A program made the translations under genes and the position numbers. From contig OZ249436.1 in the NCBI GenBank assembly GCA_965235115.1, forward strand, positions 37,574,001 through 37,638,000: DNA of 64,000 nucleotides. Direction: 5' to 3'. The stretch comes from Laetmonice hystrix. Its lineage: Eukaryota. Shown in pieces: positions 7,001 to 64,000 of the stretch (its first letter is position 1; every line of letters starts with the position of its first letter). A model generated the notes under the pieces. That model was not told the origin of the DNA, searched no databases, and saw nothing but the letters and a program-made list of their open reading frames with translations.

Positions 7001-8950
7001 CCCATACACAGGTGGTTTGAAAACCAGGCCAAGGCTGTGTAATATTTAATCTTTACCCATACACAGGTGGTTTGAAAACACGGCCAAAGCTGTGTAATAT
7101 TTAATCTTTACCCATACACAGGTGGTTTGAAAACACCACCAGGCCGCGTATATCTTATCTTTGCCCCAATACAGGTGATTCAAAGTTATTAAAAAGGGTA
7201 TAGTATTCTAATGTTCAACTGACTCTTTGCCCACATCTTTACCCATAAACAGGTGGTTTGAAAACATGGCCAAGGCTGTGTAATTTTTAATCTTTACCCA
7301 CACACAGGTGGTTTTAAAACACGGCCAAGGCTGTGTAATTAATATTTACCCATACACAAATGATTTGAAAACACGGCCAAGGCTGTGTAATTGAAATCTT
7401 GACTGAGACAGCCCAGGCTGCCACAATGTTTACTTTTGGCCTCACATACATGGGGTTCTCCGATACAGTTTCAAATGTCCAATCTTTACCCCGATACAGG
7501 TGATTCACAGTCGAAAGTGTCTTATATCTGCCCCATGCGCAAATGGTTCAAAGCTTAGGCCTACATTTAGGCAGGTGACGGGTATAATACTGATCACCGT
7601 TAATTTAATGTGCCATTTCGCGTACGGGTATTTTCCTCCATCGCGTACATTTTCCAACTGTTTAATTTCGTGAAACATGCGGAACTTTTGAATGTTTTAC
7701 AAGTGTTGCATATTTGATACATGCATTTATTGGCGACCATCGATCTTTGCCCTAGACACAGGTGATTCACAAAGTGCAACCAAGGTTGCCAAATATAATT
7801 TGATTTTACCGATGTGGTTTACTTAGACAGCCAAGGCTGTCAAAATGTGTGGTCTTGTAATATGAACAAAACTATCGACCGAGCTTTACGTATACACACG
7901 TGGCTTAAATACATGCAAGGGTGTCAAATCTATCTACAATTTACCCCATTCACAGGTAGTTTTGACAGTCGTGGTTTTACCCACTTGACAAGGCTGGCTA
8001 ATGTATCTTTACCCCTGCACAGGTGATTTGCTAAAACAACCGAGGCTGTAACAGAAATTTGACTAATATTATATGGGGGTTCTCATGTTAACAAAAGGTT
8101 GCGGCATATATCTAGTTACGTCATACACACATGGGTAATTTTCTGGGACATGTATTCCAGATTTTAGATCAATTCGCGTCTGCGTATTTCTCTCCAATCT
8201 GTACATGTATTGTTGATTCTTTTCCCTAGACAGAGATGATTCGAAAGTGCAACCAAGCTTGCCAAATATCTTATCTTACACTTAGACGGCCAGGCTGTCA
8301 AAAGGTGCTATCATTATTTTTACAAGTGCTCCTACACATTATGATATGGATCAAGGATGACTCTGAGATTGGGGTGGAGAATGCATGGGGGTTTCATGAT
8401 ACATCCAAGAATGTCTGATATAGTTCCTTTACCCCATACACAGGAATGTCATCAGACATGCAAGGCTCTTTCATACATTTATTAATCTTTACCATATACA
8501 CAGGTTTCACAATGTATATTCATCCTATACACAGGAGGTTTCTAAGCTTTACCCCATACACAGGTGGCTTAAAAAGACGGCCAAGGCTGTGTAATATTTT
8601 TTTTCAATACACAGGTGGTTGAAAACATGGCCAAGGCTGTTTAATATTTTTTAACCATAAACAGGTGGTTTGAAAACGGCCAAGGCTGTGTAATATTTAA
8701 TTTTTACCCATACACAGGTGATTTGAAAACACGGCCAAGGCTGTGTAATATTTAATTTTTACCCATACACAGGTGATTTGAAAACACGGCCAAGGCTGTG
8801 TAATATTTAATTTTTACCCACACACAGGTGATTTAAAAACACGGCCAAAGCTGTGTAATATTTAATTTTTAATCATACACAGGTGATTTGAAAACACGGT
8901 CAAGACGGTGTAATTATTTTGATTTTTACCCATACACAGGTGATTTAAAA
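4085..8950. repeat. 55-bp satellite array with higher-order structure; degenerate flanks extend to about 3366 and 10200
   Basis: Monomer tttacccatacacaggtggtttgaaaacacggccaaggctgtgtaatatttaatc (accca at 4146 and 4201, period 55). An interrupting cassette (gttataaaaaaaggtatagtattctaatgttcaactg) occurs four times, and a ~1.88-kb block is duplicated (gagacagcccaggctgcc at 5521 and 7405). Confidence 0.95.
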
Positions 8951-11609
8951 ATATGGCCACCTGTTTTTAGGAAATCTTGTCTGAGACAGCCCAGGTTGCC
9001 ACAGTGCCTCATGCACATGGGGATCTCTGATACAACCGTCAAATGTCCAATCTTTGCCCTGATATAGGTGATTCACAGTATCAAATGTCTGATCTTGGCT
9101 CATGCACAAGCAGTTCAAAGGGTGCATTGCTTACCTTTTAAGTTTAGGCAATTAATGGCTATAATATTAAAAACCGTTAATTGTATGTGCCATGTATTCC
9201 AGATCTGTGGCCATTTCGCTTACGGGTATTTTCCTCCATCGCGTACATTTTCCGACTATTTCATTTCGTGAAACGTGCGGAACTTTTGAATGTTTTAGAA
9301 ATGTTGCAAATTTTATACAGTTTTGAGATTTGCGTCAGACAGGCGTAACGGGACGTGCACATGCATTGTATTGGTGATAATTGATCTTTGCCCTTCACAC
9401 AGGTGATTCACAAAGCGCAACCAAGGTTGCCCAATATAATATGATTTTACCGATGTGGTTAGACAGCCAAGGCTGTCAAAATGTGTGATCTTGTGATATG
9501 AACAAAACTGCTGACCGATCTTTACGTATACACATGGTTAAATACATCCAAGGCTGTCAAATCTATCTAATCTTTACCCCATTCACAGGTGGTGTCCTAC
9601 CCCATTCAGTTAGTTTGACAGTCATGGCTTTACCCACGTGACAGGTGGTTTCAATAATACATCCAAGGCTGGCTAATATATTTACCCATACACAGGTGGT
9701 TTGATAACACAGACCAGGCTGTGTACTGTTTTAAACTTAACAAACACACAGGTGGTTTGTTAAAACAGCCAACAGTTCCAATTTCAAAATGGCACATACG
9801 GAGGTTATATTGCTTACTGGCTTTAGCATGTAAGCAGGTTTTTGGTGGTGTGTACCCAACTTTTTTCATGAACGAATCACGGGTTTGCAGTGCTTATGCT
9901 GACAAACGGCTATATTCATGATACTTTAATGAGATGATCTACGTGTATTCGTGATCTTTGCCCTATGGACAGGTGAATCACTTTTACAACCAAGGTTTTC
10001 ACTGATACCGTCAAGGCTTTTAAAATGTCTGATTCTTTTCCTCCCCCATACACAGGTGATTCACTGATAAAGCCAAGGCTGTTTCAGTATATCTTATCTT
10101 TGCCCCTATACAGGTGATTAAAAGGTATTAAAATGGCTTGTCTTTGTCCCATGCACAGGTATAGTAGTCTAATAGTCTACTGACTGGATGGATTATTTGC
10201 TCTTTGCCCACATTTAGCCAGTTATGTGGCGTACTGTGACTTTTTCCCAAGTGCAGGTGGTTTACTATGGAATCAAGTGTGTATACTGATAACATTGCCT
10301 AGATCTAATTTGGACAGCTAGTTTGAGCACTTAAGACTGTCAACCAACTTCCCCTCCCCATTCAAAATTTGGACTAAGTATAAGCTCGGATTTTGACACT
10401 TCGGGATTTAAGTGAATTTTAGTATGCAATGTTTGCAAATTACCGAGTCATGTTTCAAGAAACAGGCCTTTTCGGATCTTTAGCCTGTGAAACACGGTTA
10501 ATGGCTTGGTGTAATCGTAGAACTCTTGGCCATCAATATCGGTCTCTCACAATTACGTCGAGCATTGTGTATATTTGTTTCAGGAAAGGTACGTACAAGC
10601 TCACGAGTGTGAAAGATCTTTATATGGACACATGTATAGTTTTTATTAGCCGGTTGAATTAGATTATTCCAAAAGCGGTGGTGATGAAATCAATGACACA
10701 TCGCAAAATGTAAAAAGACTACAACGTGAGGTTGCAGATCGAATCTGTGTGTAGCGATGGTCGTAGTCGTCATTGAAATAGTCACCAACCAAAGAAAATA
10801 TCTCCTACGTCATAAATTACAACCCCACCGAATGGTATATAAATTCACCCTCTATTTCCACGGTTAATCTGCATAGATGGCGCCGCGGATGTTTAAAGTG
10901 ATCTCAGAACCAAGTGCCTGTCAGACGAGTTCGACAAAATATAGTAGGCATTGGATGTATGTAACAGCCTATAGTTGTCAAATCTTGAATGATAAGTCAC
11001 GCCTAGGCCAATCTGATTGTGAGTTGTAGCAATTTCGGTTTAATTAGTTAATTCTGAGTTCAGGCGTTACCTTCACCTTCCGCTGCGGTATATTTGCTGG
11101 TGTTTTGACCATTCGGGAACCCTCGGGAAAGTCCGCCACCTCGAGGTAGCGCCGAGTGGTGTTTTGACCTCAGAACGGGGTCCCTGCTCGGCCCAAGGCT
11201 TGACATATACGGCCATCGCCCTCTAATGGTATCAATAAGGTAAGTTGTGCATATTAGTACACTTATGAGACCCTTTAAGTACATTCGGAAACAACCCAAT
11301 AATGTAATCTTAGGGCCTGAGTTCGATTCCTGTAGAGGACTATACAACTTTTCTCTTTAGGGACATTGTCAAAGTAATTGGGTTACCCCTGATGCCCGTG
11401 CATTTCAAAAGAAAAATACAGTTCTCCAACCTTTCAGTCTGATATTGCCCCACACTGAGCGTGGTTGTTTGTAAAGGCTTTCTTTCTGTGTGCGAGTCTG
11501 CAAAGCTGCACTTTGGTTTTTCTGTTTACACATCTTGGATACCTATACAAACCTAATATGTATAGTGAGTAGTGGAGGTTTTACGCCGGTCAGCATAAGG
11601 TTCCGATCT

Positions 11610-18334: not shown

Positions 18335-18671
18335 TTAGAAGGCCATTCCACGTCGACTCAGATCCTTCAGAAGAGAAACGAACCGACGTTTGTCTTCGTT
18401 TTTATCGGCAGACACGTTGAGAAGTTGAACACACAAATCTGCCACCTGTTCCGTCGGCTCCTGCCCAGTGATGACATGGACGATTCGCTTGAATGATTCT
18501 ACCGAGATGGCTTCCTGGGCCGGGTGGTTGAGGTGAACTTCCAAGGCCAGGTCAAGGTCATCGAGTTCATCGTGGAGGCGGAACAGGTCTGTGAAATCGG
18601 TCACCGTAAAACCGGGACCACCCCACGCCACTCCCCGCATGTGCACCATGACCCCAGCCTTTTCGTCGTTG
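18335..18671 (-). CDS. MICU3-like: MICU2/3-like calcium uptake protein, coding exon 2 (terminal)
   Basis: GFTVTDFTDLFRLHDELDDLDLAL...ISVESFKRIVHVITG...FVSLLKDLSRRG matches the MICU C-lobe pattern. Acceptor tttcttttgtaaacag precedes 18671, and phase 2 joins in frame with exon 1. Confidence 0.85.
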
Positions 18672-19026
18672 CTGTTTACAAAAGAAATTGTAAAGTATGT
18701 GAGGGAGGGAACGGCACAAGGACGATCCCGTTAAGTTTTCTGTTTGCTTGTCACAGTGCAAGTCACTGCAGGTGAAGTTTGCTGTAGGATAGGTCTGTCA
18801 GGAAAAGTAAACAAGCACAGCAGACTCGTGTTGTATTTCGTGCATCGATATATATACTCCGTGTGTCTGCATAATGGGAACGCTGAGAAAGAAAAGAACT
18901 TCAGGAGAAATCCCCATGAAATTGATACTTGTTTCTTTCCCTGATTCGAAGAAAGCTTGGAGGTCAGTGCTAAAATAGATTTCTGTGCTGATTTTGAAAT
19001 GTCCAGGAGTAGACTATAATGGAGTA

Positions 19027-20632: not shown

Positions 20633-20959
20633 TATTTCTAAGCCTACTATTAATGTTCAGGTTTGTTTTCGGAAAAAAATATGCATTATATGTATTCAGT
20701 GGGGATCCTGGGGGGCCCGGGCTCCCGTAGATTTCCTTTTTCTTCTTTTATAGTCAAAATAAAAAAAATGTAGGTGGGCCCCCCTTATCAAAATCCTGGA
20801 TCCCCCAATGTGTATTATATTTTCATGTTATTATGAATTCCAGCCAGATATAGGCCTACAGACAAACTGGGGCCCATACATGGGGATGTTACAAATTAAA
20901 TGCCAGTCAACATGGGGATGAGAAGCCCGTAATATTATTTAGCGTTCTTTATAACCAAC

Positions 20960-21858
20960 CTTAAGTTCGACCGTCGCAGAAGCACCCAGACAACGTCTGG
21001 GGCTGATACCGTTTTCTGTCCGCCTGACAACCTCTCAAACTCCACCTCAGCCATCTCAGTTCGAAAGTCTCCAAGAAACCGGCGGAGGTCAACAAAACGG
21101 AGAACGTCACTGCCCTTCACACCGAACAGATGTACTTCGAGAGTCGTCAGTGGTTTCCTATTGTCAACTTCTAACCGTTTGGCCTCGGAGTTCTTTTCCT
21201 GGATTACACTGTTTAGTTTGGAGCGGTCGGTAGGCTTGACGCTATCAATTATTGGGGAGAGACCATGTGCCAAGACCCCTCGCATCAGGCAAAACCGCTC
21301 ATAATCCAAATAATGTTTATCATTGGCCAAATATGAAAACATGGGACGGAAGGAGTAAGGATCCTTCATGAGCGCATGCGATAAAAGTACAAAATCTTCG
21401 AAGGAAAAAAGTCCGTCTTTGTCGAGACTCCTGAAAAAGGACGTTGAACCTTTCCACCTTCGTGGTGTGTGTTTTACCAAGCCCGTGTTGTAGCTGAGAT
21501 GATTAAGCCTACCGGTTCTGACTGGTTTTTCCTCCGTAACATACTCCATGAAATCTCTCGAGGACATGTATCTCCTACCGTCAATTTCTAGTGAAGCATA
21601 CGCGAGGAAATTGTTTTGTAGCTCTACTATATGCCAGGAATGAGCTTTTTCACCCCGGATTGATAGAGCACCGAATTCGCCACAGTCCTGTCCATCTTCC
21701 GTCAACGTCTCTTCTGTGACACCGCACGGATAGAAGTTATGTTCACCTATTCTTTTCTTGGACGATTTTACAGCAAGATCGTGTCCTTTGATTGTTGCCC
21801 CCGTGCCGATGACCAGTACAACCACTGAACGTGTCCTTCCCCACGCTTGTCTGAACAT
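20960..21858 (-). CDS. MICU3-like: MICU2/3-like calcium uptake protein, coding exon 1 (411 aa after splicing)
   Basis: FLAYASLEIDGRRYMSSRDFMEYVTEE, FFRSLDKDGLFSFEDF, TTLEVHLFGVKG and FRTEMAEVEF match MICU-family blocks. Basic N-terminus compatible with a mitochondrial presequence. Donor AAG|gttggt at 20960/20959. Confidence 0.85.
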
Positions 21859-29563: not shown

Positions 29564-30669
29564 TCCTTCCTTTTTTCTTTTGAATGATAAAGTCATTGTC
29601 CATCTTTAGTATAGTGTCCTGCTTGTGGAAGCATATGAATTTGACCCTGCTTTTACTCTATTACTCTGTTATGAAATAATCATTATCCGTTACTTCATCG
29701 AGAACAACTCAGATATGATGTTAGACGTTACTTAGTTTACATTTACACTGATATGTCATTCAGTAGGAAAGGATGTCCTTGGCAGATATAGCAGGTTTTC
29801 TACCAACATCTCCATATGACTACCTTCATCTGTTGGCATTGTATAAATATCGTGTGCTTCTTGAAAGTATTCAAAATAACTATAAAACATTTCCATCGCG
29901 TAAGTTTGCTCCAGATAAATGGTTGTGAAATGTATACTTCCCATTTGAGTATCTTCTCCAAGTTTTAACAGTAGATGCCCCTCGCCTAGATACCTTTCAT
30001 TTTCACTGCTTCACTCTACTGTTTGTTTGGCTACTAGGGCAGTCAGTACCATGTAGATACTCCTCACTGTACTGTTTGGCCTCCCTTGCTGTTTGGCCTC
30101 ACTGTTTGGCCATACTGTATTGTTTGGCCTCACTGTACTGTTTGCTTGGGTACCTTTTTAAAAAGAAAATTTTCTAGTTCTTTATCCCGGACAGCAGCTG
30201 GGCCATATGCGTTCTTCCGCGCTTCCAGCAGAAAAGTTAGAATAGACTACAGATTTTCCTAGTGAGCGGCGTGGCCTTATATAGGTCGCCCTCGGTGGCA
30301 TCCTCATAGTCATCGTTACATCATCTTCTCCACTGCTTTCAAAAAAGTGAAGGGAAACTTAGGAAAGATGGTCAAATGGGCCGGTAACTGGAAAGTAGCT
30401 TAGATTTCTGAAACGGCGAGTTCATACATGGCTGCTGATTGGCCTATGCGTAACACGTGACGGCGGCAGCCTGCCCGGCGACTGCAGCGCCAAGGCTGCT
30501 CCCTAACAGGCACGGCGTCGGGGTATACGGGATACGTTGGCGCCACCAACGGAACGCGAATGAACCAGTTATAAACAGTATTGTTTCATTTCGGTACATG
30601 CAAGCCACTGACCGGACCGCTTTGCTCACTGTGCCGGTCAGCTCTGCACGATCGGCATTCGGTGACCGT

Positions 30670-30810
30670 TAAGTAACCTCCCCACCTGACTTAGGCAAGT
30701 AATGGTTAAGACAGGCTCGGCATATCTTAACGCGACTGAGGAACGGTTAAGTAACATTTTTGGATGATATCTTGACTAAGTAATACTTAGCGCGACTGAG
30801 GAACCGGCCC
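30670..30810. mobile_element. DNA-transposon (Harbinger-like) terminus abutting the truncated transporter copy
   Basis: Repeated cgcgactgaggaac and ttaagtaa motifs ending in gaggaaccggccc, followed directly by ctg of the transporter sequence. Confidence 0.55.
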
Positions 30811-31110
30811 CTGGTCATTCCCACACGGGCAGTTGATATAGTATTGATTATGGGTCACTGTTTGAGCGCTACATTCACTATCATTGGATATTTCTACGCG
30901 AGCCAAGCGATTGGTCCCATGCGTGCAAACCTTGTGCGCTTCTTTGAAGTTGTAATGTTACTTCTGCCACAGTACACAGTGTTAAAAGACATTATACCGG
31001 GACACAGGAATGTTCTAGAAGTGTTCGGAGCCGTCCTGACGACGGCTGGGGTCGCGCTCACGCCGGCAGTTGATCTGATCGCCAAAAGAGGCGGACGGAA
31101 CTATTTATAG
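30811..31110 (+). pseudogene. 5'-truncated EamA/SLC35G-like copy (last 99 codons plus stop)
   Basis: Near-identical to 34335-34634, starting at the CTG (Leu) codon of EELVIPT. Upstream sequence is unrelated. Confidence 0.9.
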
Positions 31111-33617: not shown

Positions 33618-34634
33618 ATGGCAGACAAGACGGAGACCTGGAGATCCTTGCTGGGATATCTGGCAGCTATTGGTGTCGTTATCGCTGACTGCATTGGGAT
33701 CTCATGTGTTCAGGCCTTGCGTCGGTTGATACCTGACTTCCAGCTTAACGTATTTAGGTACGTCATTCAAGTAAGCATAAGTTTTGTCATCATGAAGACA
33801 CAGAGGATTCCGTTTGCGACTGACCAAACCAACTATGGCTGGATATGCCTTTTTGTCTTCTCCGGCATTGCCAACAATGCTGCCTACTTTGGGGGAGGTG
33901 CGATTATTGCTGTCTCCGCTGCCGGTGCAACCCTTAACCTGTCAGCAGTTATAGCGGTAACACTTCTGTGTAAACTATTCCTGAATACCCGGATTGGACT
34001 CGTTCAGTGGATTGCCATATGTGTTTGTGGGACTGGTGTATTCTGTATCAGCCAACCTGAGCCGTTTTTCCAGAAGGAACTTCAAAATAACAGTTTGTGT
34101 CTTCAAAATGACTTCAACATCACGGAAACCAGAGGCAACACTTGTGAACACGGTACTCTTGACTCGACTATTCTCTTGGGCTATATACTGGTTGCCGTAG
34201 GTGGCTTTTCACTTGGCACAGTATCTATCATTTCTGGGCTCGTACTCACCCATATAAATCCAGTGAGCCAAGTCGTCTGGATTTCTTCCCTTGGTGCTTT
34301 AGCATCAATGTGCATATCTTTTTACTTTGAAGAGCTGGTCATTCCCACACGGGCAGTTGATATAGTATTGATTATGGGTCACTGTTTGAGCGCTACATTC
34401 ACTATCATTGGATATTTCTACGCGAGCCAAGCGATTGGTCCTATGCGTGCAAACCTTGTGCGCTCCTTTGAAGTTGTAATGTTACTTCTGCCGCAGTACA
34501 CAGTGTTAAAAGACATTATACCAGGACACAGGAATGTTCTAGAAGTGTTCGGAGCCGTCCTGACGACGGCTGGGGTCGCGCTCACGCCGGCAGTTGATCT
34601 GATCGCCAAAAGAGGCGGACGGAACTATTTATAG
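33618..34634 (+). CDS. SLC35G-like: EamA/DMT-superfamily multi-pass transporter, SLC35G-like, 338 aa, intronless CDS
   Basis: About 10 hydrophobic segments in two halves separated by a Cys/N-glycosylation loop. Motifs IPDFQLNVFR, G(V)FCISQP, A...IGP..ANLVRSFEVV and EVFGAVL are typical of SLC35G-type EamA proteins. Confidence 0.85.
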   Translation: MADKTETWRSLLGYLAAIGVVIADCIGISCVQALRRLIPDFQLNVFRYVIQVSISFVIMKTQRIPFATDQTNYGWICLFVFSGIANNAAYFGGGAIIAVSAAGATLNLSAVIAVTLLCKLFLNTRIGLVQWIAICVCGTGVFCISQPEPFFQKELQNNSLCLQNDFNITETRGNTCEHGTLDSTILLGYILVAVGGFSLGTVSIISGLVLTHINPVSQVVWISSLGALASMCISFYFEELVIPTRAVDIVLIMGHCLSATFTIIGYFYASQAIGPMRANLVRSFEVVMLLLPQYTVLKDIIPGHRNVLEVFGAVLTTAGVALTPAVDLIAKRGGRNYL

Positions 34635-34644
34635 GCGTCCAACA

Positions 34645-35666
34645 CCCAGCGGACACACCACGTGGAAACCACGTGGACAACTGGTGGAAAACTCGGTCCC
34701 ATGGAAAGACAAAGTTATATTAAAATATGTAAATGTCTATGATAACATTTCCCCCAAAGAAAAACTGGCTAGCTCTGTACGACGATTGACTTTGAGAAAG
34801 AACCGTTGTGAGAAGCAGAAGGTCTAACAGTACTGGCAACTGGATCAATTGTAGCCAACTCGTCAGCTCTGTGTGTATACAGACCTGACGCTAGGGTGGC
34901 CAAAAAATCTAGTGAATATGTTATATTGCAACCTCAAAAGCAAAACATATATTTGTTTTAGGAAGTTACGAACTTTGCTTAGTGTTGCGGTGGTGTAAAT
35001 CTTTAAGGCAGTGGTGTAAATCTAGATGAATCTAGATGGTTTTCCGGACGATTTCTTTTTTCTAGCGAAATACGTCCCATTACTTTACGGGTTCTATCAC
35101 TGAACGCCCCGAGCGTTAGCGAAGGGGTTTATGGTAAATGTTCTGAATTGACAAATAGAGAAAAAAATTCGAGACAAAGTCGAGGATTTTTATTGAGAGA
35201 GAAAAATAATCAACCGAGGGGTGCTATCAATACACCCCCTTAGTAACGCGCGGGGATTTATTGATAGCAACACAAGGAAAAACAGGATTCCAACCATGAA
35301 AGATATAAGCTACAAGCGTGGCCGAATGGGCAGAGACGCGGACCTGTGATCAGGAGATCCACCGTTCGAGTCTCACCAGTGCCCGGCAGCTGTGCGAAAA
35401 AGGCATACGGTCTCGGAGTCAGTGACCACTCAACCATGGCGGCCATATCATGGCTAAAAATAGCCGGATATCAGACCCACTTTGTGTATGATGTGGAAAC
35501 CTGGTGAAATGGAAAACTGGGTGATATGACATGGAAAACGACACTTGTAATCCACATTGACATATCCACATGGATTACTCTTTCAAATTACACAGTTTCC
35601 CACCTGTATTCCACGGGTCATATCCACGTGAATTCCACGGGAAATCCACGAGTTTTGCCTGCTGGG
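34645..35666. mobile_element. CCCAG-terminal non-autonomous DNA transposon with nested SINE, copy 2
   Basis: cccagcggacacaccacgtgg ... ccacgagttttgcctgctggg (16/21 inverted match). Confidence 0.65.
35309..35384 (+). mobile_element. tRNA-derived SINE head (duplicate of 31785-31860)
   Basis: A box at 35319, B box gttcgagtct at 35364. Confidence 0.6.
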
Positions 35667-37139
35667 TGATGGGAAACTGGTGGTGAATTCAAGTGATTTT
35701 GCCACGTGTATTCAACGTGAAGAAATCACGTGAATTTAGTTTACACATACCACCAGTTTGCCACGTGATTTCTACGTGGCAAATTTACGTGCATTACACG
35801 TTATTCCTACGTGCTGTGCCCTGGTGAATTCACGTGATTTTGCCACGCGTATTCCACGTGAAGAAATCACGTGGATTTAGTTTACACATACCACCAGTTT
35901 GCCACGTGATTTCCACAAAACAAAAGTTCATGTCTGACTTCCTATCTGTCAATAATAGTAACTATTGCGTTATCTTGCACCGTTTTCGAGATATGAGCCA
36001 AAAAAGTGTTATGGGGGATACAAATATTGCCGCCATGTCGCCATATTTTCTCTGATCTAAGAATACATTGGCATATACCATTGCCTCTCATGCCTTCTTT
36101 CCACCGAATTTGAAAGAAATCGGGATTGTTTTGTCTGAGTTATTGCTCCAAATGTGTTTATATCCAAGATGGCTGCAAGCGGCTATTTTGAGCCATATCA
36201 AAAAAACCTTCATGGTGTCTTTGACATTACACAGAGGCACACTTCCAAACAGTAAAAACCTGTTATGTCAGTGTTGGAAGGACCCTTTTGAGAGTTGCGT
36301 ATGATGTTGGTGTAATTTGGCATTCCTCTAAATATCAAGCAGCATACTTGTCATAACAAGTCAACTGTCGGTAACTGAACTATTCATACCTCTGCTGATT
36401 AGAAGTTTTACTACTCTCACGATCAACTTGAAATTAACAGCTTAGGTAAAATGCCGGAATAAACATACTGATAAATTTCAATGTCTTTGACACGGTTGCG
36501 GGAAATTGCTTACTACTGACACGGTACTCTGTCAGTAGACACTTACTATAATTTATCAACAAATCTCCTAATACATTAATATTTTTCTCTTCTCTCCCTC
36601 ATTTTATTATCACCCCTCTACATTTCAAAACTTGTGTCCAGCCCTGACATAGACAACGCACATGGACTTTGATATGAATAGTAGGCCTATTAATCCTCAT
36701 TGACACAGTAGTATCCAATTATAAACCCACATATCAGTATGAGGGGGTGTAACACACTGTCTTATTGGTACTGTGCAGCTTATTGACACTGTGCATTTGA
36801 GTTTGACACTAACCGGCCACCGTACTTGTGAATTAATATGCTAATAGTGAGAATTAATGTTCTTTCTGTTATAATAATGTTCCTTTTTATTGTTGTAAAT
36901 ATAAATAACACAAGAGTTGTGTTACAATATGACGATCTTTGTGCTCTCGAAAGTGGCAGTTAATTTCAACGTTTTCACCAGGTATATATCGACAAGTTGG
37001 ACATTTGTACTATAAATGCATCTTAGTGAGTCTCTACTCTACATGTATATTGGCGAGGCACTGCATGAACTAATTACCACTACGCTTCGAGCTTCTGTGA
37101 CAAACGGTAACACCGGGAACTGCACGGAGTAATCGCGCA

Positions 37140-38150
37140 ATGGCAGACAAGACGGAGACCTGGAGATCCTTGCTGGGATATCTGGCAGCTATTGGTGTCG
37201 TTATCGCTGACTGCATTGGGATCTCATGTGTTCAGGCCTTGCGTCGGTTGATACCTGACTTCCAGCTTAACGTATTTAGGTACGTCATTCAAGTAAGCAT
37301 AAGTTTTGTCATCATGAAGACACAGAGGATTCCGTTTGCGACTGACCAAACCAACTATGGCTGGATATGCCTTTTTGTCTTCTCCGGCGTTGCCAACAAT
37401 GCTGCCTACTTTGGGGGAGGTGCGATTATTGCTGTCTCCGCTGCCGGTGCAACCCTTAACCTGTCAGCAGTTATAGCGGTAACACTTCTGTGTAAACTAT
37501 TCCTGAATACCCGGATTGGACTCGTTCAGTGGATTGCCATATGTGTTTGTGGGACTGGTGTATTCTGTATCAGCCAACCTGAGCCGTTTTTCCAGAAGGA
37601 ACTTCAAAATAACAGTTTGTGTCTTCAAAATGACTTCAACATCACGGAAACCAGAGGCAACACTTGTGAACACGGTACTCTTGACTCGACTATTCTCTTG
37701 GGCTATATACTGGTTGCCGTAGGTGGCTTTTCACTTGGCACAGTATCTATCATTTCTGGGCTCGTACTCACCCATATAAATCCAGTGAGCCAAGTCGTCT
37801 GGATTTCTTCCCTTGGTGCTTTAGCATCAATGTGCATATCTTTTTACTTTGAAGAGCTGGTCATTCCCACACGGGCAGTTGACATAGTATTGATTATGGG
37901 TCACTGTTTGAGCGCTACATTCACTATCATTGGATATTTCTACGCAAGCCAAGCGATTGGCCCCATGCGTGCAAACCTTGTGCGCTCCTTTGAAGTTGTA
38001 ATGTTACTTCTGCCACAGTACACAGTGTTAAAAGACATTATACCAGGACACAGGAATGTTCTAGAAGTGTTCGGAGCCGTGCTGACGACGGCTGGGGTCG
38101 CGCTCACGCCGGCAGTTGATCTGATCGCCAAAAAAGGCGGACAGAACTAG
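37140..38150 (+). CDS. SLC35G-like: EamA/DMT-superfamily transporter, SLC35G-like, 336 aa, intronless CDS
   Basis: Identical to the 33618 copy except one I>V change (SGVANN) and the C-terminus (KGGQN versus RGGRNYL). Confidence 0.85.
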   Translation: MADKTETWRSLLGYLAAIGVVIADCIGISCVQALRRLIPDFQLNVFRYVIQVSISFVIMKTQRIPFATDQTNYGWICLFVFSGVANNAAYFGGGAIIAVSAAGATLNLSAVIAVTLLCKLFLNTRIGLVQWIAICVCGTGVFCISQPEPFFQKELQNNSLCLQNDFNITETRGNTCEHGTLDSTILLGYILVAVGGFSLGTVSIISGLVLTHINPVSQVVWISSLGALASMCISFYFEELVIPTRAVDIVLIMGHCLSATFTIIGYFYASQAIGPMRANLVRSFEVVMLLLPQYTVLKDIIPGHRNVLEVFGAVLTTAGVALTPAVDLIAKKGGQN

Positions 38151-38171
38151 GCGACCAACAGTAATAGAGGT

Positions 38172-40514
38172 CTATATTGACTGAGTGTGGAAAACGAAAG
38201 ATGGACCTGGATCTGGACTTCTGTATCCGAACTCATTTATGACGCCTGCATGTATCAAATTTTCTTTGTCGTCACCATCATCTACCGACATCCCGACGGT
38301 GCCACAAGAGTTTTCCTCGGGGGAGAATCCATCCCGACTCATTATGTATCCCTCGAAAACAACCGACTCATTATGTTCCCCAGGTGTACCCAGTTTGTTT
38401 ACAGGGAGACAGTACAAGAGTTGGTCCCAGAAAACCTTCGACTCTCTTTCTACATAGGTGAAACGCCGAAGATAATTTTGTATGGTGTTGTCAAGGTTAC
38501 TCATGTCAAGATTGGTGTCCTTGATGATCACCAGGCGGTGCGTACCATCCTCCATATCTGTGTTTAAGGCGACGGCAAATTCCCAGATACAAAAATAGCT
38601 GGTATTGAATGAATCCGACAGAAACACCAGAGTACGTTTACTTTTCTGCACAGCTTGTTCAATATTATCCATTATTGGGGTACCGGGCATGAAGTGTTGC
38701 CGATGGAAACACACCTTGAACGCGAGGGATCGAAGTTTTGGGATGAGATAATCCTCTATGTATGCTTCATCTTCAGTCGCATAAGACACGAAGACGTCGT
38801 ATTTCTTATCTTCACCCTGACACTCGTCCCAGTCGAGTGGATGCCATTTTAACATTTTATATATCCAAATCCTTTTCATATATAACATAAATATGGGGAG
38901 CATCAACAGAATAATACAGAGGATTAAAGTTCCACTGACTGTAATTACTATTGTTCGTGTCTTTTCATTAGCTGGTTCTCCACATATCAATTTGTCGTCT
39001 TCTAATGAGAGCAGGCTGCTTCCTTTGAGCCTTTCCGGATATGCGCACATGATGGTCTTCCAATCTTTGACGACAGCTTGGTGATTGACGAGCCAATGTT
39101 TTGTTTTCAGAGCATGACAATCACATATCCATGGATTACTATGAAGTGATATTTCTGTCAGTGACACCAAGCCGAAAGAAAAATTTAAATCAGCAATCGG
39201 CAAACGTTGGAAAGAATTATGATCTAGGAAAAGATACTTCAAATTTGTTAAATTCTGCATCGTTTCCCAACCCAAGTCACTTATTTTGTTGTGACTGAGC
39301 GACAATGTTTCTACGAACTCCAAATATGGTCGATATTCAATGGTTGTTAAGTTATTGTTTTGAAGGAAGAGATGGTAGCGGTAATTGTTCCGTGGTCTTG
39401 GCGGCAGAGCCCGTGGTAAGTCTTTCATACCGATATCTGGACAATTGACAGTCATGTTAAGCCAAACGGATGTATCTATACACTTACATCCGGTCGGGCA
39501 CTGATCCTCCACCGTACAGGTGAACGCAGAAACTGGGATATCTCCGAGGTCGTTATTGTTTAGTATCTCAGAGGGAGAGCATTGGAGTCCCCGAGTCTTA
39601 TAAACCTCATCATAGAGGAGAAGAAGATTATCAGTGTCCATAGGCTCCTCACATATGCAAGTAAATGGATTTTCCGTTATGTCTACTTTCTTGCTTAAGA
39701 GGATAGCCAATGCGGTAACAAAAGTAAGATTCCATCCCTGTAGGATGTCCGAGATGTGGGAAATGTTGTTGTGAGTTGCACTGAATGCACCAGTCCATTG
39801 ACTTGAAAATCCCGTACCACTGGGAAATATCCAACCAGGCCGGTTTGTGAATACTGAAATATAGTTGTAGTCGAAATTCATTGTCATTTGGCGCCCAGGA
39901 AACATTAAAATCCATGGGTCAAGGCTGATTAACCGATTTCCAGATAGGTCTAAAAAATTGAAATGTGGTAGCTTGCTAATGTTGCTGAATACGTCCTCTT
40001 CAATTTCAGTTATTTTATTAAAACTGAAATCCAGGGATATAATGTTTTTGAAACCATAGAAGATCCCGTTTTTTAGTATGGTAAATTCATTATTGGAGAC
40101 GAAGAGCACCCTTATATCAATATTCCAGAGATCCACCCAAGGAAGCTCCAGAAGATTGTTGTAGGATAAATCCAGTACCTGGAGATATTTTAGATTGCGG
40201 AGGCTCTGAATCACTTCGACGGGCAACACGGACAAGTGTGAGCTTTTAACACCAATGGCACTTATATTTTTGTTGATATGCAGCAGAGAACTCATATTGT
40301 GTGCGGGATCCCTGACGCAATCTGTAATCCATAACCATCGCAGGCCATAAACAACTTCCAAAGTACAGTTGCAGTAACTGATACAGGACGTTTTTAAATG
40401 TATATTATGTTTTATTGAAAGAATTGCCGTAGCGCCCCTGTATTGGTGGTCTTCCGTATCAAAGAAAACACTGAGGACAAAGATCAGAAGTGGCGAAACT
40501 CGGCGGGCCAGCAT
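38172..40514 (-). CDS. TLR: Toll-like receptor, multiple-cysteine-cluster (protostome) type, 780 aa, single coding exon
   Basis: Signal peptide; LRRs (LQVLDLSYNNL, LDFSFNKITEI, LDLSGNRL); internal LRR-CT NPFTCIC plus LRR-NT CPTGCKC; second LRR block; LRR-CT NPWICDC; TM helix; TIR domain with YDVFVSY, BB-loop HFMPG and FW box. Confidence 0.97.
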   Translation of the reverse strand: MLARRVSPLLIFVLSVFFDTEDHQYRGATAILSIKHNIHLKTSCISYCNCTLEVVYGLRWLWITDCVRDPAHNMSSLLHINKNISAIGVKSSHLSVLPVEVIQSLRNLKYLQVLDLSYNNLLELPWVDLWNIDIRVLFVSNNEFTILKNGIFYGFKNIISLDFSFNKITEIEEDVFSNISKLPHFNFLDLSGNRLISLDPWILMFPGRQMTMNFDYNYISVFTNRPGWIFPSGTGFSSQWTGAFSATHNNISHISDILQGWNLTFVTALAILLSKKVDITENPFTCICEEPMDTDNLLLLYDEVYKTRGLQCSPSEILNNNDLGDIPVSAFTCTVEDQCPTGCKCIDTSVWLNMTVNCPDIGMKDLPRALPPRPRNNYRYHLFLQNNNLTTIEYRPYLEFVETLSLSHNKISDLGWETMQNLTNLKYLFLDHNSFQRLPIADLNFSFGLVSLTEISLHSNPWICDCHALKTKHWLVNHQAVVKDWKTIMCAYPERLKGSSLLSLEDDKLICGEPANEKTRTIVITVSGTLILCIILLMLPIFMLYMKRIWIYKMLKWHPLDWDECQGEDKKYDVFVSYATEDEAYIEDYLIPKLRSLAFKVCFHRQHFMPGTPIMDNIEQAVQKSKRTLVFLSDSFNTSYFCIWEFAVALNTDMEDGTHRLVIIKDTNLDMSNLDNTIQNYLRRFTYVERESKVFWDQLLYCLPVNKLGTPGEHNESVVFEGYIMSRDGFSPEENSCGTVGMSVDDGDDKENLIHAGVINEFGYRSPDPGPSFVFHTQSI

Positions 40515-41417
40515 GATGTTTACGATTTCAGCCCACTCTGAAACATATTACATGTTGTGTTTGAGTAACGGTTGAAATGCTTCATCACCAACACCACTAC
40601 AACAACCACCACAACCACCAAATAATAATAAAGTTTCGTCTGTCTCCAACTGCGTCAAGTTTTTAGCCCCCAACCGGAACCCAGATTAAATTTAAGTGTT
40701 CAAGATAACTACATTCTGTTATAAACGAAGGTTAGGAAATTATATTATTTTTTGGTTGTCACTATTTCCCTTTACCTTGTGAGGTCCATCAAGGTCGAGG
40801 ACATTTTTTCAACGTTTCATATCTAGAAAACACTTCAAGATGACCACTTTACTACAAAGAGATATATAAAGTTTTATTATTTTAAATACGAAGTACACAT
40901 ACACCCTGACAAATTTATATTCTCTCTATCCGGCCAGTTGAGGGATGTGGCTCCGAGGGGTCTTTTATTGATTATAAACTAATTAAAGGTGACGAAAAAG
41001 TTCAAATTATCAATATAAGGGTGTTCAGCATGAACAAGCTTGTTCATACCTACAATACTGTGATGGTCTGATCTTTAATAAAGGAATAATCAACTGAAAT
41101 GTAGCTAGGCATTCTCCCGCTGGCTTCGTCTGCTTGTCAACCCTACTTGTCCACGAATTGTTATGTGGCCGCCAGGCGGAACGAACCACGCAGATTCCCA
41201 GCCAGAGTGCCGCTATTCAAGTACCGCCGCGATTCCACTTTTACCAGAAACATGCCCATGATGGCGACAGATTCATTGGCGATTTCAGAGAGGGTTGCAA
41301 ACGATAGCCGCACACAAACTCTGTATTCGTTAACATGCCCCAATAAGGGTGTGAAGAGAGAGAAAAAAGTTGTCTGCTGTCACCGGTAAGAGTACACAGT
41401 CAGTAATGCAGTCGTAG

Positions 41418-56879: not shown

Positions 56880-57061
56880 CTGAAATCCAAGGTGGCAACA
56901 TATTGGTCAATATTATAATTTATCACGTGCCGGGGAGTGAAGCGTGACATTATACCGTCAAAAATCATGCATATATATTGACTGATATGCAAAAGTGCCT
57001 TTGCATCCCCTCCTGAGGCCATGTAGCCTAAATTTACTTCTTGCATTCAAATATATATTCC

Positions 57062-59603
57062 AACTAGATACGTTGTGGAGTACCACAATGGATCCCATCC
57101 CCGGGGTGTCCCATGTAACATGTTCTGAATAGGGATAACTATGGTACTATCTTGCACCCGTGACGACTTATGAGCCTTAGAAGATGGAAGTTACGTCATT
57201 ATGACCTTATGCTACGTCATAAATATTGATCTCAATGGACTTCCTATTCATGTTCAAAAATAACTATAGGTGTATCTATAGCGCGTGTCACCAAGTTAGG
57301 AACTAAAACATCATGTTGCCCTGACATTTTTTGTGCCGGTGCTAATATCTCAGCAACTATTGGGTCTACAGTATTCAAATAAACATCATTCTAGACCTTA
57401 GACTTAGATCTACGTAAATCACAACATGGCATCTGTCTATTCTTTAAATCCTACAAGCTAGCAGTGTGTGAAGAGCTACGAAAACTTGCCGAAATTTTCC
57501 ATTTTCCTTGACTCTGCACCAGTAAATGTGTCGCTGCAGTCATCGTATTCAACTTGACACATCCTAACTTGCATGCTGGTTTCAAAATTAAATTCCCGAT
57601 CGAATGGTACTACAGTCATCTTTATAGCTTCAATTTTGCCAGTTGTAGTAGCAGCACACTGTGAGATCGAAATTTGCCGTTTTTGTACGTTTATAGGTCA
57701 AAACGTCACAGATGCATTGTCAGACGTCACAGAAGAACAACGTCATTGTGAATTTTCAATGATAGGATAAGGTTCAAATTTTTTTACAACATAATATTAT
57801 ATGTCTTTGTAAAGGGAATCTTTTTCTGTTTTCCACTGTAATATTTTTTTCTAATACTGGGATATTTTGACCTTGCAAGAGCTTCCTGTTTGGCATAATG
57901 TTAACTGCCAGGATGTCGACCTCATCATGTTTATCATCCGGGTCACAGCTGTCAAAACGTGTCACAAAAAGTCTTATGTAAAGTTGATGTTTTCTCAGTA
58001 ACGAAGCGTGCGATTGAGCTAAAACTTTTTGGCCGTTTACCTGAGATGATTGTAAAGCTTTTAGTATAAGTTTGAATTATAGCAGATTTCCAGTTTTTGT
58101 ACAAGCAGCATTATGTCTGCTGCTGGCACTGCGAAGTCTGACTCTGCTGTGACGTCGGCGGCCATGAGATGGGCCATGTGCTTGACTAAAAGTCCGGGTT
58201 GTCATGGTGTTTTCTTATTAATATCATAAAATCTTGCATAATAAAACTTTTGAACTGGGCTATTATTATGATCATACACTATTTCATAATGTTAGAAGCT
58301 TTTATTGAAATTTAAGAATGGTAACCCTGAATTTGTTGGGGATCAAATGAGCTACCCGAGACAGTTCCTAACTTGCTGCAAAGAACTATAGCACCGTTTA
58401 CTAGTTACAGGCTTCTACCAATCCTTAGAAGGGCTCAGTTACGTCATAAGGATGTAATAGATCACACAACAGAATAAATCTTGGTGTCAATTGAAAGAAC
58501 ATAATGAGGACTTCCTGTTTATAAATATTCAATACTAACTATGGGTCTAACTCCTACCATTTACAAGTTAAAACCCTGAGAAAATATCGATGACATCGTT
58601 ATGTCATGGGTCACGTGTCCTAAGAAATAATGATGCCAAACGAAAGAGTATACATGACTTCCTATTCGTGTTCAATAGTAACTATGGGTCTAACTTCAAG
58701 CATTAACAAGTTATATCCCTTAGAAAATATCGATGACATCTTTACGACGTCACAGGTCACGTGACCTTAAGGATGACGATACCAAGTGATAGCAAGTTAT
58801 AGCCCTCACAAAATATAGGTTCACTGGCTGTGGTAATCAGTACCAGTTCAATCCAGTATTAGCTTGTCAGATTGCGTAGCACTGGCGATAAGTGTCTTGA
58901 CTCACATGCTATGGGTCGCCGGTTCAATCCCAGGCCGAGTCACCTATTTTTTTGGACTTCTACCGGAAGGGTCCCGCGTTCAATCCCAGGCCGAGTCACG
59001 TTTCTTTTTGTTTTTGTTTTTTCCCTCTAATTTTTAAAAATGGTCACGTGACCTGAAAAAAAATATCATAAAAGAGCATAATGACTTCTTATCTGTGTTT
59101 AATAGTAACCAATGCCAAATCTGGCACCGTTTACAAGTTCTAGAAAATTGACAATTTTTCGAAATTTCAAAGTCACGTGATTCAGCGAATATTAGTCAAA
59201 TCGCTTATCTTTTGATGATTTGAGACAAGCTCATGTTAGAGAGTCCTTCTGCCTAGTATTGTCGAATTTCACCAAAAAATGAAGAAGAAGTAGCGATTTA
59301 AGAGATTTGTGACTGAGGACCCAGTTCTCCCAAAGTTCAAGGTCAAATGACAAATGAAGGGTCCATGTTAGACTAGACCCTTGCCTGATTAAAACGCCAT
59401 GATGGGGTTTGGAAATTCCCAATATGAACGTCATGACGTGACGTCATACGTCACGTCACGTGATATGTCACAACTTATTGTCTGACCAGTCTTTGTCATG
59501 GTCAAGATGTGTGCCAAATTTGATTGAGATATCTTGAAAACTGACTGAGATGGACGCCACTGTTTACTACTACTACTACTACTACTACTACGACGACGCA
59601 AAG
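57062..59603 (-). mobile_element. Helentron-type element, unit 1 (older, with secondary insertions)
   Basis: aactag + gtggagtaccac hairpin + ggatcccatcccc; degenerate 146-bp units; conserved body module; (TAC)n at about 59564-59591. Confidence 0.7.
58872..58945 (+). mobile_element. tRNA-derived SINE head
   Basis: A-box-like tagcactggcg and B box ggttcaatccc at 58921. gttcaatcccaggccgagtcac is repeated at about 58978. Confidence 0.5.
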
Positions 59604-60826
59604 AACTAGACACGTTGTGGTGATACCACAATGGATCCCATCCCCTGGGTGTCCCGTCTGATATGTTTATAGTATAGTTAACTATCATGTATGACTTCCG
59701 ATTCGTATTAGATAGAAACTGGGGCTATATCTTGCATGGCTCACGGCTCATACACCTTAGAAGATTCCAATGATGTCATGATGACGTCATAGGTCACGTG
59801 ACCTGAAAAATGATGGTATCAAAGGAAAGAGCATATATGACTTCCTATTCATCTTTAATAGTAACTATGGCTCTAACTCCAACCATTTACAAGTGATAGC
59901 CCTGAGAAAGTATGGTTGACATCATTATGACGTCATAGGTCACGTGACCTGAAAAATAATGGTGTCAAGTGAAAGAGCATATATGACTTCCTATTAGTGT
60001 TTAATAGTAAGTATGGCTCTATCTTCAGCCATTTATAAGTTATAGCCCTGAGAAAGTATTGATGACATCGGCATGACGTCATAGGTCACGTGACCTAAAA
60101 AGAATGGTATCAAATGAAAGAGCATATATGACTTCCTATTAGTGTTTAATAGTAACTATGGCTCTAACTTCAACCATTTACAAGTTATAGCCCTGAGAAA
60201 ATATTGATGACATCGTTATGACGTCATATATCACGTGACCTGAAAAATATTGGTGCCAAATGAAAGAGCATATATGACTTCCTATTCGTGTTCAATAGTA
60301 ACCATGACCCTATCTGGCACCGTTTACGAGTTATAGCCGTAGATACCTAAACTGACCACTGTTCAAAACTTTATGGTCACGTGATTCAGCGAAAATAGGT
60401 CAAATCGCTTATCCGTGGAAATATCTGGTGAAGCTCTTGTTAGAGAGTCTTTCTGTGCAATATTGTCAAATTTGACCAAAAAATAAAGAAGGAGAAGCGA
60501 TTTAACCAATTTGTGACTTAGGACCCAATTCTCCCTAAGGTCAAAGGTCAAAGGTCAAATGAAGGGTCAGTTTTAGGCTAGACCGTTGCCTGATCATAAC
60601 ACTACGATATATCTTGGAAATTCCCAATATGATCTTAAGAAATGGCCCTTAATATCCCAAACACGTTTGACGTCATGACGTCATGACGTGACGTCACGTG
60701 ACGTCATAAATGATTATGTGACCTGACATTGTCATGGTCAAGCTGTGTGCCAAATTTGATCGAGATATCTTGAAAAATGACTGAGATAGAGGTACTGTTT
60801 ACTCCTACTACTACTACTACGCAAAA
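59604..60826 (-). mobile_element. Helentron-type element, unit 2, with about four 146-bp internal repeats
   Basis: aactag at 59604; gacgtcata at 59783, 59929, 60075 and 60220; (TAC)n tail. Confidence 0.8.
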
Positions 60827-62428
60827 AACTAGACATGTCGTGGCTAGACCACAATGGATCCCATCCCCTGGGCGACATGTCCTTTCCGTCATGTTCTGAG
60901 TAGGGTTAACTATGGCTCTATCGACTAAATGATGTCATTATAATGTATGATGTCAGGATATGTATTTATGACGTCATACGTAATGCTATGTCATCTAACA
61001 ATTGAAAGAGCATGACTTCCTATTCACGTTCAATATTAACTATGGCCATATCTTGCGACGCCTTTGAGTTATAGGCCTTACAAGATGCCAATGACGTCAG
61101 TATGACGTGATACATCACGCTACCTAATGAATATTGGTGTCAATTGAAGGAGCATGTATGACTTCCTATTCATGTTCAATAGTAACCATGGCTTTATCTC
61201 CCACCGTTTAAGAGTTATAGGCCCTAGAAAATATTGATGACGTCACTATGACGTCATACATCACGCTACGTCATCAAACTTGGCTTCAATTGAAAGAGCA
61301 TGTATGACTTCCTATACATGTTCAATAGTAACTATGGTCCTATCTTGCACTGTTTTCGACTTATAGGCCATAGAAGATACCAATGACGTCGTTATGACGT
61401 CATACGTCACGCTACCTAATAAATGTTGGTGTCAATTGAAAGAGCATGTATGGCTTCCTATTCATGTTCAATAGTAACCATGGCGTTATCTCCCACCGTT
61501 AAAGAGTTATAGGCCCTAGAAAATATTGATGACGTCATTATGACGTCATACGTCACGCTACGTCATCAAACTTGGCCTCAATTGAAAGAGCATGTATGAC
61601 TTCCTATTCGTGTTCAATAGTAACTATGGGCCTATCTTGCACTGTTTTCGACTTATAGGCCATAGGAGATACCAATGACGTCATCATGACGTCATACGTC
61701 ACGCTACCTAATCAATGTTGGTGTCAATTGAAAGAGCATGTATGGCTTCCTATTCATGTTCAATAGTAACCATGGCTTTATCTCCCACCGTTTCAGAGTT
61801 ATAGGCCCTAGAAAATATTGATGACGTCATTATGACGTCATACGTCACGCTACGTCATCAAATTTGGCCTCAATTGAAAGAGCATGTATGACTTCCTATT
61901 CGTGTTCAATAGTAACTATGGCCCTTACTGGCACCGTTTATGAGTTATAGCCATAGATAGCCAAATTGACCACTGTTCAAAACTTTGAGGTCACGTGACT
62001 CAGCGAATATAGGTCAAATCAATTGTAGCAAGGGGGATTCCTTTGGAACTCTCATTAGACACCATTCCTGTGCAATTTCATAAAATTTTAATGAAAATTA
62101 AGGAAGAAGGAGGGATTTAAGCATTTTATGACCTTTGACCCAGATTTCAGACATGTCAAAGGTCAAAGGTCAAAATATTTGCAAAAACATTATTAGGCCC
62201 TTGCCCAATTCTGACAGTGTCATCAGTTCCTGGAAAGTATCCATATTGACTTTGAAAACCGTCTTAATAGTCACAACACGAATAACGTCATGACGTCATG
62301 ACGTTACGTCATGTGACGTCATGACTCATTGTCACATCAGAGTTGGTGACTGGCAATATGCCCACCAAGTTTGACTTAGATATCTTGAAAAATGACCGAG
62401 TTATGACCCCTGTTAACAATTGTTAACA

Positions 62429-62469
<41 letters not shown>

Positions 62470-62622
62470 GCAAATAATAATAATAATAATACGGAAACCG
62501 AAACCACACAATTTCTAGATCCCATCCCCTGGATAGGGGATGGGATAATAATAATAATAATAATAGGGAAGACGAAACCACACAATTTCTAGATCCCATC
62601 CCCTGGATAGGGGATGGGATAA
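60827..62622 (-). mobile_element. Helentron-type element, unit 3, with a 146-bp array in A/B dimers and two stacked terminal hairpins
   Basis: atg(a/g)cttccta at 61012, 61158, 61304, 61450, 61596, 61742 and 61888. Hairpin atcccatcccct-ggat-aggggatgggat at 62519-62546 and 62593-62620. Confidence 0.85.
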
Positions 62623-62623
62623 T

Positions 62624-64000
62624 AACTAGTCATGTCGTGGCGAGACCACGATGGATCCCATCCCCGGGGTGACATGTCCTTTCTGATATTGAGTTTGAGT
62701 AGAGTTACGTTCAAGGCAGACACTTCCCGACACATCTGTAATAGGCAGTGGTGTTTGGGAAGTGCCAGGTAAGGTGTCAAGTTATGACCCTGAGAGAATA
62801 TTTATGACATCCTTATGACGTCATAGTAACTATGGCTGCATCTTCAACCATTTACAAGTTATAGCCCAGGGAATATATAGGTGTCCTCCTTATGATGTCA
62901 TAGGTAACGTGACGTACAAAACAATGGTGCCAAATGAAAGACCATATATGACTTCCTATTCGTGTTCAATAGTAGCTATGCCCCTATCTGGCACCGTTTA
63001 CAAGTTATAGCCCTGGGAACATATTGGCGACCTTGCTATGACGTCATAGGTCTCGTGACTTAAAAATTATTGGTGCCTAATCAAAGGGCATGTATATATG
63101 ACTTCATATTAGGGTTTAGTAGTAACTATGGCTCAATCTTCAACCATTTACAAGTTATAGCCCTGAGAAAATGCCAGTGACATTCTCATGACGTCATAGA
63201 TCACGTGACCTGGAAAATGAAGGTGCATAATGAAAGAGCATACATGACTTCCTATTCGTGTGTAATAGTAACTATGGCTCTATCTTCAACGATTTACAAG
63301 TTATAGCCCTGGGAAAATATTGGCGACGTCGTTATGACGTCATAGGTCATGTGACCCACAAAATAGTGGTGCCAAATGAAAGACCATATATAACTTCCTA
63401 TTCGTGTTCAATAGTAACTATTGCCCTATCTGGCACTGTTTACAAGTTATAGGCTTGAGAATATATTGGCGACCTTGCTCTGACGTCATAGGTCACGTGA
63501 CCTGGAAAATGAAGGTGTATAATGAAAGGCTACATATGACTTCCTATTAGTGTTTCATAGTAACTATGGCTCTATCTTCAATCATTTACAAGTTATGGCC
63601 CTGGGAAAATATAGGTGACGTCGTTAAGACGTCATGGGTCACGTGACCTACAAAACAATGGTGCCAAATGAAATATCATATATGACTTCCTATTCGTGTT
63701 CAATAGTAACTATGGCCCTATCTGGCACAGTTTACAAGTTATAGCCCTGGGAAAATATTGGCGACCTTGCTGTGACGTCATAGGTCACGTGACTGAAAAA
63801 TTATGGGTGCATAATGAAAGAGCATGTATATATGACTTCATATTAGGGTTTACTGGTAACAATGGCTCAATCTTTAACCATTTAGAAGTTATAGTCCTTA
63901 GAAAATGCCGATGACATTCTTATGACGTCATAGGTCACGTGACCTGGAAAATGAAGGTGTATAATGAAAGGGTACATATGACTTCCTATTACTGTTTAAT
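62624..64000 (-). mobile_element. Helentron-type element, unit 4, with a ~146-bp array running off the window
   Basis: aactag + gtcgtggcgagaccacga hairpin + ggatcccatcccc, then tandem gacgtcataggtcacgtgacc...gacttcctatt...aatagtaactatgg units. Confidence 0.8.

Follow-up and report, generated by a model that had tools for sequence, protein, structure and literature searches.

SLC15A4 works with the endosomal Toll-like receptors (TLRs) TLR7/8/9, in a partnership that operates at the protein level and whose genes are unlinked. At the level of gene arrangement, convergent (tail-to-tail) cis-natural antisense pairs are a known class (PMC1524920). Bivalves and some annelids have expanded TLR sets with tandem duplicates (PMC10279657, PMC10192322), the second source stating for some tubeworms that TLRs are expanded. 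SLC35G1 is a citrate carrier (PMC11542916). Here we describe a 64,000-nucleotide stretch of the Laetmonice hystrix genome (hereafter, the window) in which a TLR gene and a transporter gene of the EamA/DMT type lie tail to tail. The arrangement is, in our judgement, likely to be a one-off rearrangement junction between members of two expanded families, and probably constitutes a convergent cis-antisense pair.

The junction between the transporter and the receptor gene

Both open reading frames (ORFs) are open and single-exon as read. Their stop codons face each other across 21 bp, the transporter stop being a TAG at 38148-38150. The ORF coordinates (Table 1) bear out what an earlier sequence-only reading had described, namely two intact, intronless coding sequences (CDSs) joined end to end. 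The same reading placed the first minus-strand AATAAA beyond the whole transporter CDS, and this was correct: past the TLR stop, neither AATAAA nor ATTAAA occurs until the AATAAA at 36891-36886, 1280 nt away. On the plus strand, the first ATTAAA past the transporter stop is found at 38923 (772 nt, within the TLR CDS) and the first AATAAA at 40627. Variant hexamers, which are weak signals, exist at the join: AATAGA on the plus strand (38163-38168) and AATATA on the minus strand (38178-38173). Because AATAAA occurs 44 and 48 times on the two strands of the window, about once per 1.4 kb, the signal distances at the join are ordinary. With two intact genes in convergent orientation, the locus has the layout of a cis-natural antisense pair. 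A search for a gene enclosing the pair covered 61 of the 71 longer stop-to-stop frames and detected no Pfam family above the cut-off.

The DNA of transporter paralogs aligns through the transporter stop and the whole spacer into the TLR stop, and the homology ends abruptly at 38176; hence, the spacer is a remnant of the last codons and 3' flank of the transporter. In the frame of the paralogs, the transporter stop is the TAA at 38162-38164, inside the spacer. Compared with them, the window transporter has lost one nucleotide near 38128 and has undergone a C>A substitution; together these produce an early stop. Beyond 38176, many paralogs have a common further flank (60-250 nt) that the window lacks. 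As judged from the alignment, 38176/38177 is a breakpoint, and the transporter 3' flank is cut 12 nt past the ancestral stop. Cuts near the stop are routine in this family: 56 family 3' ends (54 paralog ends, 7 fragments among them, plus the 2 ends of the window) fall into 19 downstream classes, with breakpoints that range from within the last codons to ~130 nt past the stop, many of them at 0-130 nt. The tandem sister of the window transporter is cut 16 nt earlier and continues into a dispersed repeat. A 7-nt inverted match and a 12-bp palindrome seen at the breakpoint in paralogs are within chance and were not used.

On the TLR side, an acidic dileucine-like motif (loose pattern) is found at 38253-38270, 26 residues before the end of the protein. 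Such a motif lies at most 3 residues from the end in 14 of 20 TLR paralog tails and in 5 of the 10 outside homologs that were parsed (5 more were unparsed); we take it that the motif may mean endosomal sorting. A run of 26 stop-free codons has a chance probability of 0.29, and the DNA from 38177 to 38420 is unique in the genome (one match).

A likely sequence of events can be drawn from these observations. An old, dispersed intronless TLR and a much younger, DNA-duplicated EamA/DMT copy were probably brought end to end. The distance of 21 bp would have been set by two small changes, earlier or later than the join: the frameshift, which moves the transporter stop upstream as the alignment shows, and the running on of the TLR frame for about 26 codons to its first stop, presumably supplied by transporter-derived DNA. 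Each gene would then borrow polyadenylation signals from the territory of its partner. Since 21 bp is too short for two cleavage sites, the 3' ends must overlap if both genes are transcribed. We infer that both genes are expressed and that their 3' ends do overlap: use of the variant hexamers would give an overlap of tens of bases, and use of the canonical ones an overlap of 0.8-1.3 kb. Most likely the overlap is not what the arrangement serves but is tolerated, for instance by expression in different cell types or at low levels, and the proteins probably act independently, one as a pattern-recognition receptor and the other as a carrier of small metabolites. The surrounding DNA is rich in repeats and unstable, and the tandem unit begins at a dispersed repeat.

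Read data are consistent with a real and persistent join. Four runs (X1-X4, from one sample and one study, none of them recorded as RNA) were used in the form of contigs. An independently built X2 contig spans 38100-40208 across the join, with 7 nt fewer than the window has there; the X1 and X3 contigs both begin at 38170. These two facts are explained exactly by a 7-nt deletion ending at 38169, and a second allele would therefore also carry the join. The read depth is 1.5-1.6 times as high upstream of the transporter as over the TLR, the value expected of three units on two haplotypes; thus, the tandem transporter duplicate is probably heterozygous in this one individual. X4, which makes up a small share and differs from the other runs, could be RNA, but was not used as evidence because its kind, strand and ends are unreadable from contigs. 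It contains a single contig of 918 nt from a transporter paralog, with 80 differences, and exact short pieces at 39327-39538 and 36591-36806. Position 36591 lies 12 nt beyond the second AATAAA of the minus strand; the piece that includes it matches tandem unit 2 just as well and was likewise set aside.

A separate observation concerns the region just upstream of the TLR, where the X1 and X3 contigs skip 465 bp (40832-41296). This suggests a polymorphic repeat insertion near the TLR promoter.

Table 1. Coordinates of the features of the transporter-TLR locus, numbered from the first nucleotide of the window.
Feature	Position	Strand	Basis or remark
Intronless EamA/DMT-fold transporter CDS, 336 aa, unit 3 of the tandem array	37140-38150	+	Pfam, alignment, model
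Transporter-derived 3' flank: 21-bp spacer and last 5 nt of the TLR CDS (its stop)	38151-38176	+	Paralog alignment; breakpoint 38176/38177
Intronless TLR CDS, 780 aa: leucine-rich repeats (LRRs), internal cysteine clusters, one transmembrane segment (~aa 519-551), TIR, 72-aa tail	38172-40514	-	ORF, Pfam
26 TLR codons past the dileucine-like motif	38175-38252	-	DNA unique in genome; probable read-through extension
First canonical AATAAA 3' of the TLR	36886-36891	-	Inside segment 36837-36963, conserved upstream of several transporter paralogs
Putative 7-nt deletion, second allele (would remove AATAGA)	38163-38169		Position inferred from contigs
Second transporter CDS, 338 aa, 99% identical	33618-34634	+	3' flank enters dispersed repeat, not TLR
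3' fragment of third transporter copy	30811-31110	+	5' part absent from window
Dispersed repeat opening the 3.52-kb tandem unit	34642-35908		275 candidates, 40 scored, for first 359 bp

Two expanded families of different age

The transporter belongs to the EamA/DMT superfamily: Pfam detected EamA (PF00892, E 1e-13), and the predicted structure has two EamA repeats and a ten-transmembrane DMT fold. The model (predicted local distance difference test score, pLDDT, 91) aligns with the solved DMT members 5I20, 7PAF LicB, SLC35B1 and Vrg4 with TM-scores of 0.56-0.69, at an identity of just 10-16%. Pfam and fold thus uphold the first half of the label 'EamA/SLC35G transporter' given by the sequence-only reading. 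SLC35G membership is unconfirmed, as no named homolog supports it. The nearest outside proteins are unnamed and at most 45% identical, a check of 20 among the 150 listed representatives gave no informative name, and in a profile search one of 13 matches was named, as a DMT-like permease. A single-sequence search and phmmer against the PDB gave no matches.

A genome search with the transporter protein yielded 134 matches from 120 scored candidates. Near-full-length matches at 77% identity or more number 46, including the 2 of the window, and 44 of them are without a stop by hand count. The copies are spread over seven contigs (C1, C2, C3, C4, C5, C7 and C12), with 32 in one C5 cluster at 26.56-27.84 Mb. 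The window transporter forms the final member of a tandem repeat whose 3.52-kb units are 98.5% identical. Against 22 open paralogs its synonymous divergence (dS) is 0.14-0.25, and the median ratio of non-synonymous to synonymous divergence (dN/dS) in the family is 0.60 over 269 pairs, 3 broken copies of 27 having been left out; when compared with the majority state, some copies have a dN/dS that approaches or exceeds 1. The window transporter differs at 1 of 24 conserved columns and its branch carries 36 non-synonymous and 23 synonymous changes (dN/dS 0.52, p 0.012). It is under purifying selection. In a tree of 47 copies, which has a star-like shape, the two window copies form a separate basal branch.

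Paralogs on C1, C3 and C5 have in common a segment (36837-36963 in the window) located 180-300 nt ahead of the start codon. Its presence in them suggests that the copies probably arose by DNA-level duplication. A retrocopy or mobile-element origin of the family was discarded: the upstream DNA is shared, the 3' breakpoints vary, and neither a poly(A) tail nor common ends were seen by eye in 27 aligned transporter flanks. Shared ancestry with paralog L035 was also considered on account of a match at 34642-35908; the match is the dispersed repeat, and the tree does not join the two.

Several features of the transporter copies were noted in passing. About 230-400 nt past the transporter stop, L043, L056, L065, L070, L009 and L005 share a pyrimidine-rich tract followed by a coding-like stretch, which in L009 (842-1372, minus strand) includes a 177-aa open frame without Pfam match; this stretch past C5 copies is perhaps a piece of another gene duplicated alongside. 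A short 3' fragment of the previous transporter copy precedes the ATG by ~100-200 nt in L005, L006, L007, L009, L043, L065 and L070, and such fragments before intact copies are a sign of collapsed tandem arrays. In the window, the first transporter fragment starts abruptly after repeat-like sequence at 30500-30810, and similar ends break paralogs L050 and L071 at their last codons; this sequence presumably resembles the end of a DNA transposon. We found no matching report of such a transporter expansion in a literature search that left closed journals and supplements outside its cover. The expansion, with its star-like tree, a dN/dS of ~0.6 and at least 46 near-full-length copies, most of which are open, is a larger lead than the join.

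The receptor has the LRR ectodomain, single transmembrane segment and cytosolic TIR of a TLR. Pfam detected LRR_8, LRR_4, TIR and TIR_2 above the cut-off. Cysteine clusters within the LRR array and beside the membrane, read from the translation and present in homologs too, give it the mccTLR layout; of these clusters Pfam scores only the juxtamembrane LRRCT, just below the cut-off. The nearest named proteins are TLR13 and TLR14 of Arenicola marina (35-36% identity over aa 380-780). The seven closest paralogs show ~75% DNA identity, with dS 0.77-0.95 and dN/dS 0.35-0.42. In the window TLR, 5 of 173 conserved columns carry a different residue, in each case a mild change; among the variant sites listed in the contigs of the sample (n = 11), 6 alter a residue and none makes a stop. 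It is under purifying selection. Its closest paralogs form a tandem cluster on C12 in which TLR genes and fragments together number at least 13 (21.12-21.49 Mb).

To judge by dS, the transporter subfamily is about five times younger than the split of the TLR from its paralogs. The genome contains 45 TIR loci (merged searches) and about 112 EamA loci, both lower bounds because spliced genes are missed. One TIR locus of the 45, that of the window, has an EamA gene within 175 kb; the next nearest lies at 175 kb. By chance, 0.016 TIR-EamA pairs are expected within 1 kb in 627 Mb, and 0.32 within 20 kb, for a pair that was chosen after the fact. The tight join is unlikely as random placement for these two families, and is easily reached by neighbourhood plus deletion. 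No second pair was found in 20 TLR paralog loci (no transporter-like ORF of at least 180 aa) or 46 transporter loci.

Weighing the one-off junction against other explanations

If the one-off junction is accepted, it provides a clean, dissectable case of a convergent overlapping pair being born: the paralogs of both genes show the pre-join state, and on the transporter side the breakpoint is located with single-base precision. The join is not evidence of a new immune module. Certain observations speak against this explanation. The 5 nt shared at the breakpoint could be microhomology with a native TLR stop. The TLR is without a close paralog or ortholog at hand (one match), so that its pre-junction end has no reference, and either of the two genes may have been the one that moved. 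Random placement within 1 kb is expected just 0.016 times. An AATAAA or ATTAAA occurs within 600 nt in 14 of 21 TLR paralog ends and in the window TLR not before 1280 nt, which favours a long overlap. Finally, the junction appears to be present on both haplotypes with its own polymorphism, and is hence persistent; persistence with both ORFs intact is also expected of a selected arrangement.

An alternative that is compatible with a one-off origin, and that we regard as unlikely while still taking it seriously, is that both transcripts end at the weak signals of the join (AATAGA on the plus strand, AATATA on the minus strand), so that the overlap amounts to tens of bases and has no regulatory weight. 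Both hexamers are present, and 44 of 54 transporter paralog ends lack AATAAA within ~660 nt, as if the family used non-canonical or distant ends. However, such variants are common by chance, AATATA overlaps the TLR stop, and the proposed second allele would be without AATAGA.

The opposite scenario is an accidental junction that has become functional: the TLR mRNA would run 1.3 kb antisense through the transporter CDS and its upstream region, and induction of the TLR would repress the transporter by transcriptional interference or double-stranded RNA (dsRNA), possibly acting also on paralogs (87-90% identical) in trans. We consider it improbable. In its favour, the TLR strand has neither AATAAA nor ATTAAA for 1280 nt, and by AATAAA such a distance is ordinary in the family: in 19 of 21 TLR paralog ends the first AATAAA comes no sooner than 778 nt or is missing from 1500 nt altogether. 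Both ORFs are also under selection, and the junction is probably on both haplotypes. Against it, the pairing is unique in the genome, the tandem sister is intact without a TLR neighbour, and the AATAAA sits in a segment conserved upstream of TLR-less paralogs, which argues that it was not made for the TLR. A further speculation, to which we attach little probability, is that the chance join has made the TLR mRNA a 1-kb antisense copy of the transporter gene, so that dsRNA or small RNAs produced when the TLR is induced could adjust, in trans, a whole fast-evolving carrier family of at least 44 further paralogs (85-90% DNA identity). If true, pathogen sensing would have become coupled to metabolite transport in this lineage through a rearrangement scar.

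About as improbable as the repression scenario is that the loss of a 3' flank silenced one of the partners (transporter unit 3 would be the likeliest) while selection acted on the tandem sister, in which case there would be no antisense pair. The native flank is lost at 38176, and the end branch of unit 3 is longer (0.0054 versus 0.002, from very few changes). Against silencing, the branch has a dN/dS of 0.52, the ancestral flank present in unit 3 identifies it as the source of the array, and the depth ratio suggests a single unit on the other haplotype.

The sequence-only reading had proposed a co-inherited sensor-plus-transporter module, on the model of SLC15A4 with endosomal TLRs. This now seems very improbable. 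Adjacency alone speaks for it, together with the dileucine-like motif that ends most TLR paralog tails (14 of 20) and whose sorting role we presume. Within the genome, the adjacency was found only at this locus (1 of 45 TIR loci), which is one half of the outcome that the reading had set against its own proposal, the other half being absence in related species. Moreover, the ages are mismatched in dS, the spacer is a cut transporter flank, and the window transporter has a DMT fold, which we take to be unrelated to that of the SLC15 family. Among 15 of the 30 papers naming both SLC35G and Toll-like receptor, none had such a link in its title or abstract opening, and the literature search, which left closed journals and supplements outside its cover, found no report of a TLR-EamA linkage.

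An assembly artefact joining two contigs, conceivable in a repeat-rich region with a multi-copy gene and with reads from one sample that is perhaps the source of the assembly, is hardly credible, given that the independent X2 contig crosses the join and that the frameshift private to the window copy is also found in the tandem sister.

Surroundings of the pair and comparison with known systems

Elsewhere in the window, a 307-aa uninterrupted ORF (20935-21858, minus strand) matches the mitochondrial calcium uptake proteins MICU2/3 (E 3e-22), a match missed by Pfam, and a likely further exon of this MICU-like gene lies downstream at 18335-18730 (minus strand). The gene is useful as a synteny anchor. 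Long minisatellite arrays (units of ~55 and 146 bp) occupy 3800-10100 and 57000-64000, together with a 1.9-kb duplication.

The pairing of the TLR with the transporter can be compared with four described systems. As in known convergent cis-natural antisense pairs, the genes face each other; here, however, the stops are only 21 bp apart, so that a UTR (untranslated region) would cover coding sequence of the partner, and the overlap is deduced rather than observed. Like the lineage-expanded invertebrate mccTLRs, the window TLR has an LRR array broken by cysteine clusters, one transmembrane segment and a TIR, and its family includes tandem clusters and dispersed copies. Unlike them, it is a dispersed singleton whose tail extends 26 aa past the usual terminal motif and probably ends in transporter-derived DNA. 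The transporter shares two EamA repeats and the ten-transmembrane DMT fold with EamA/DMT carriers, and differs from them in having at least 46 near-identical copies in one genome and at most 45% identity to the nearest outside proteins. Finally, the pair resembles SLC15A4 and its TLR partners in that it consists of a solute carrier and a TLR, whereas the transporter fold is different and nothing at this locus shows cooperation.

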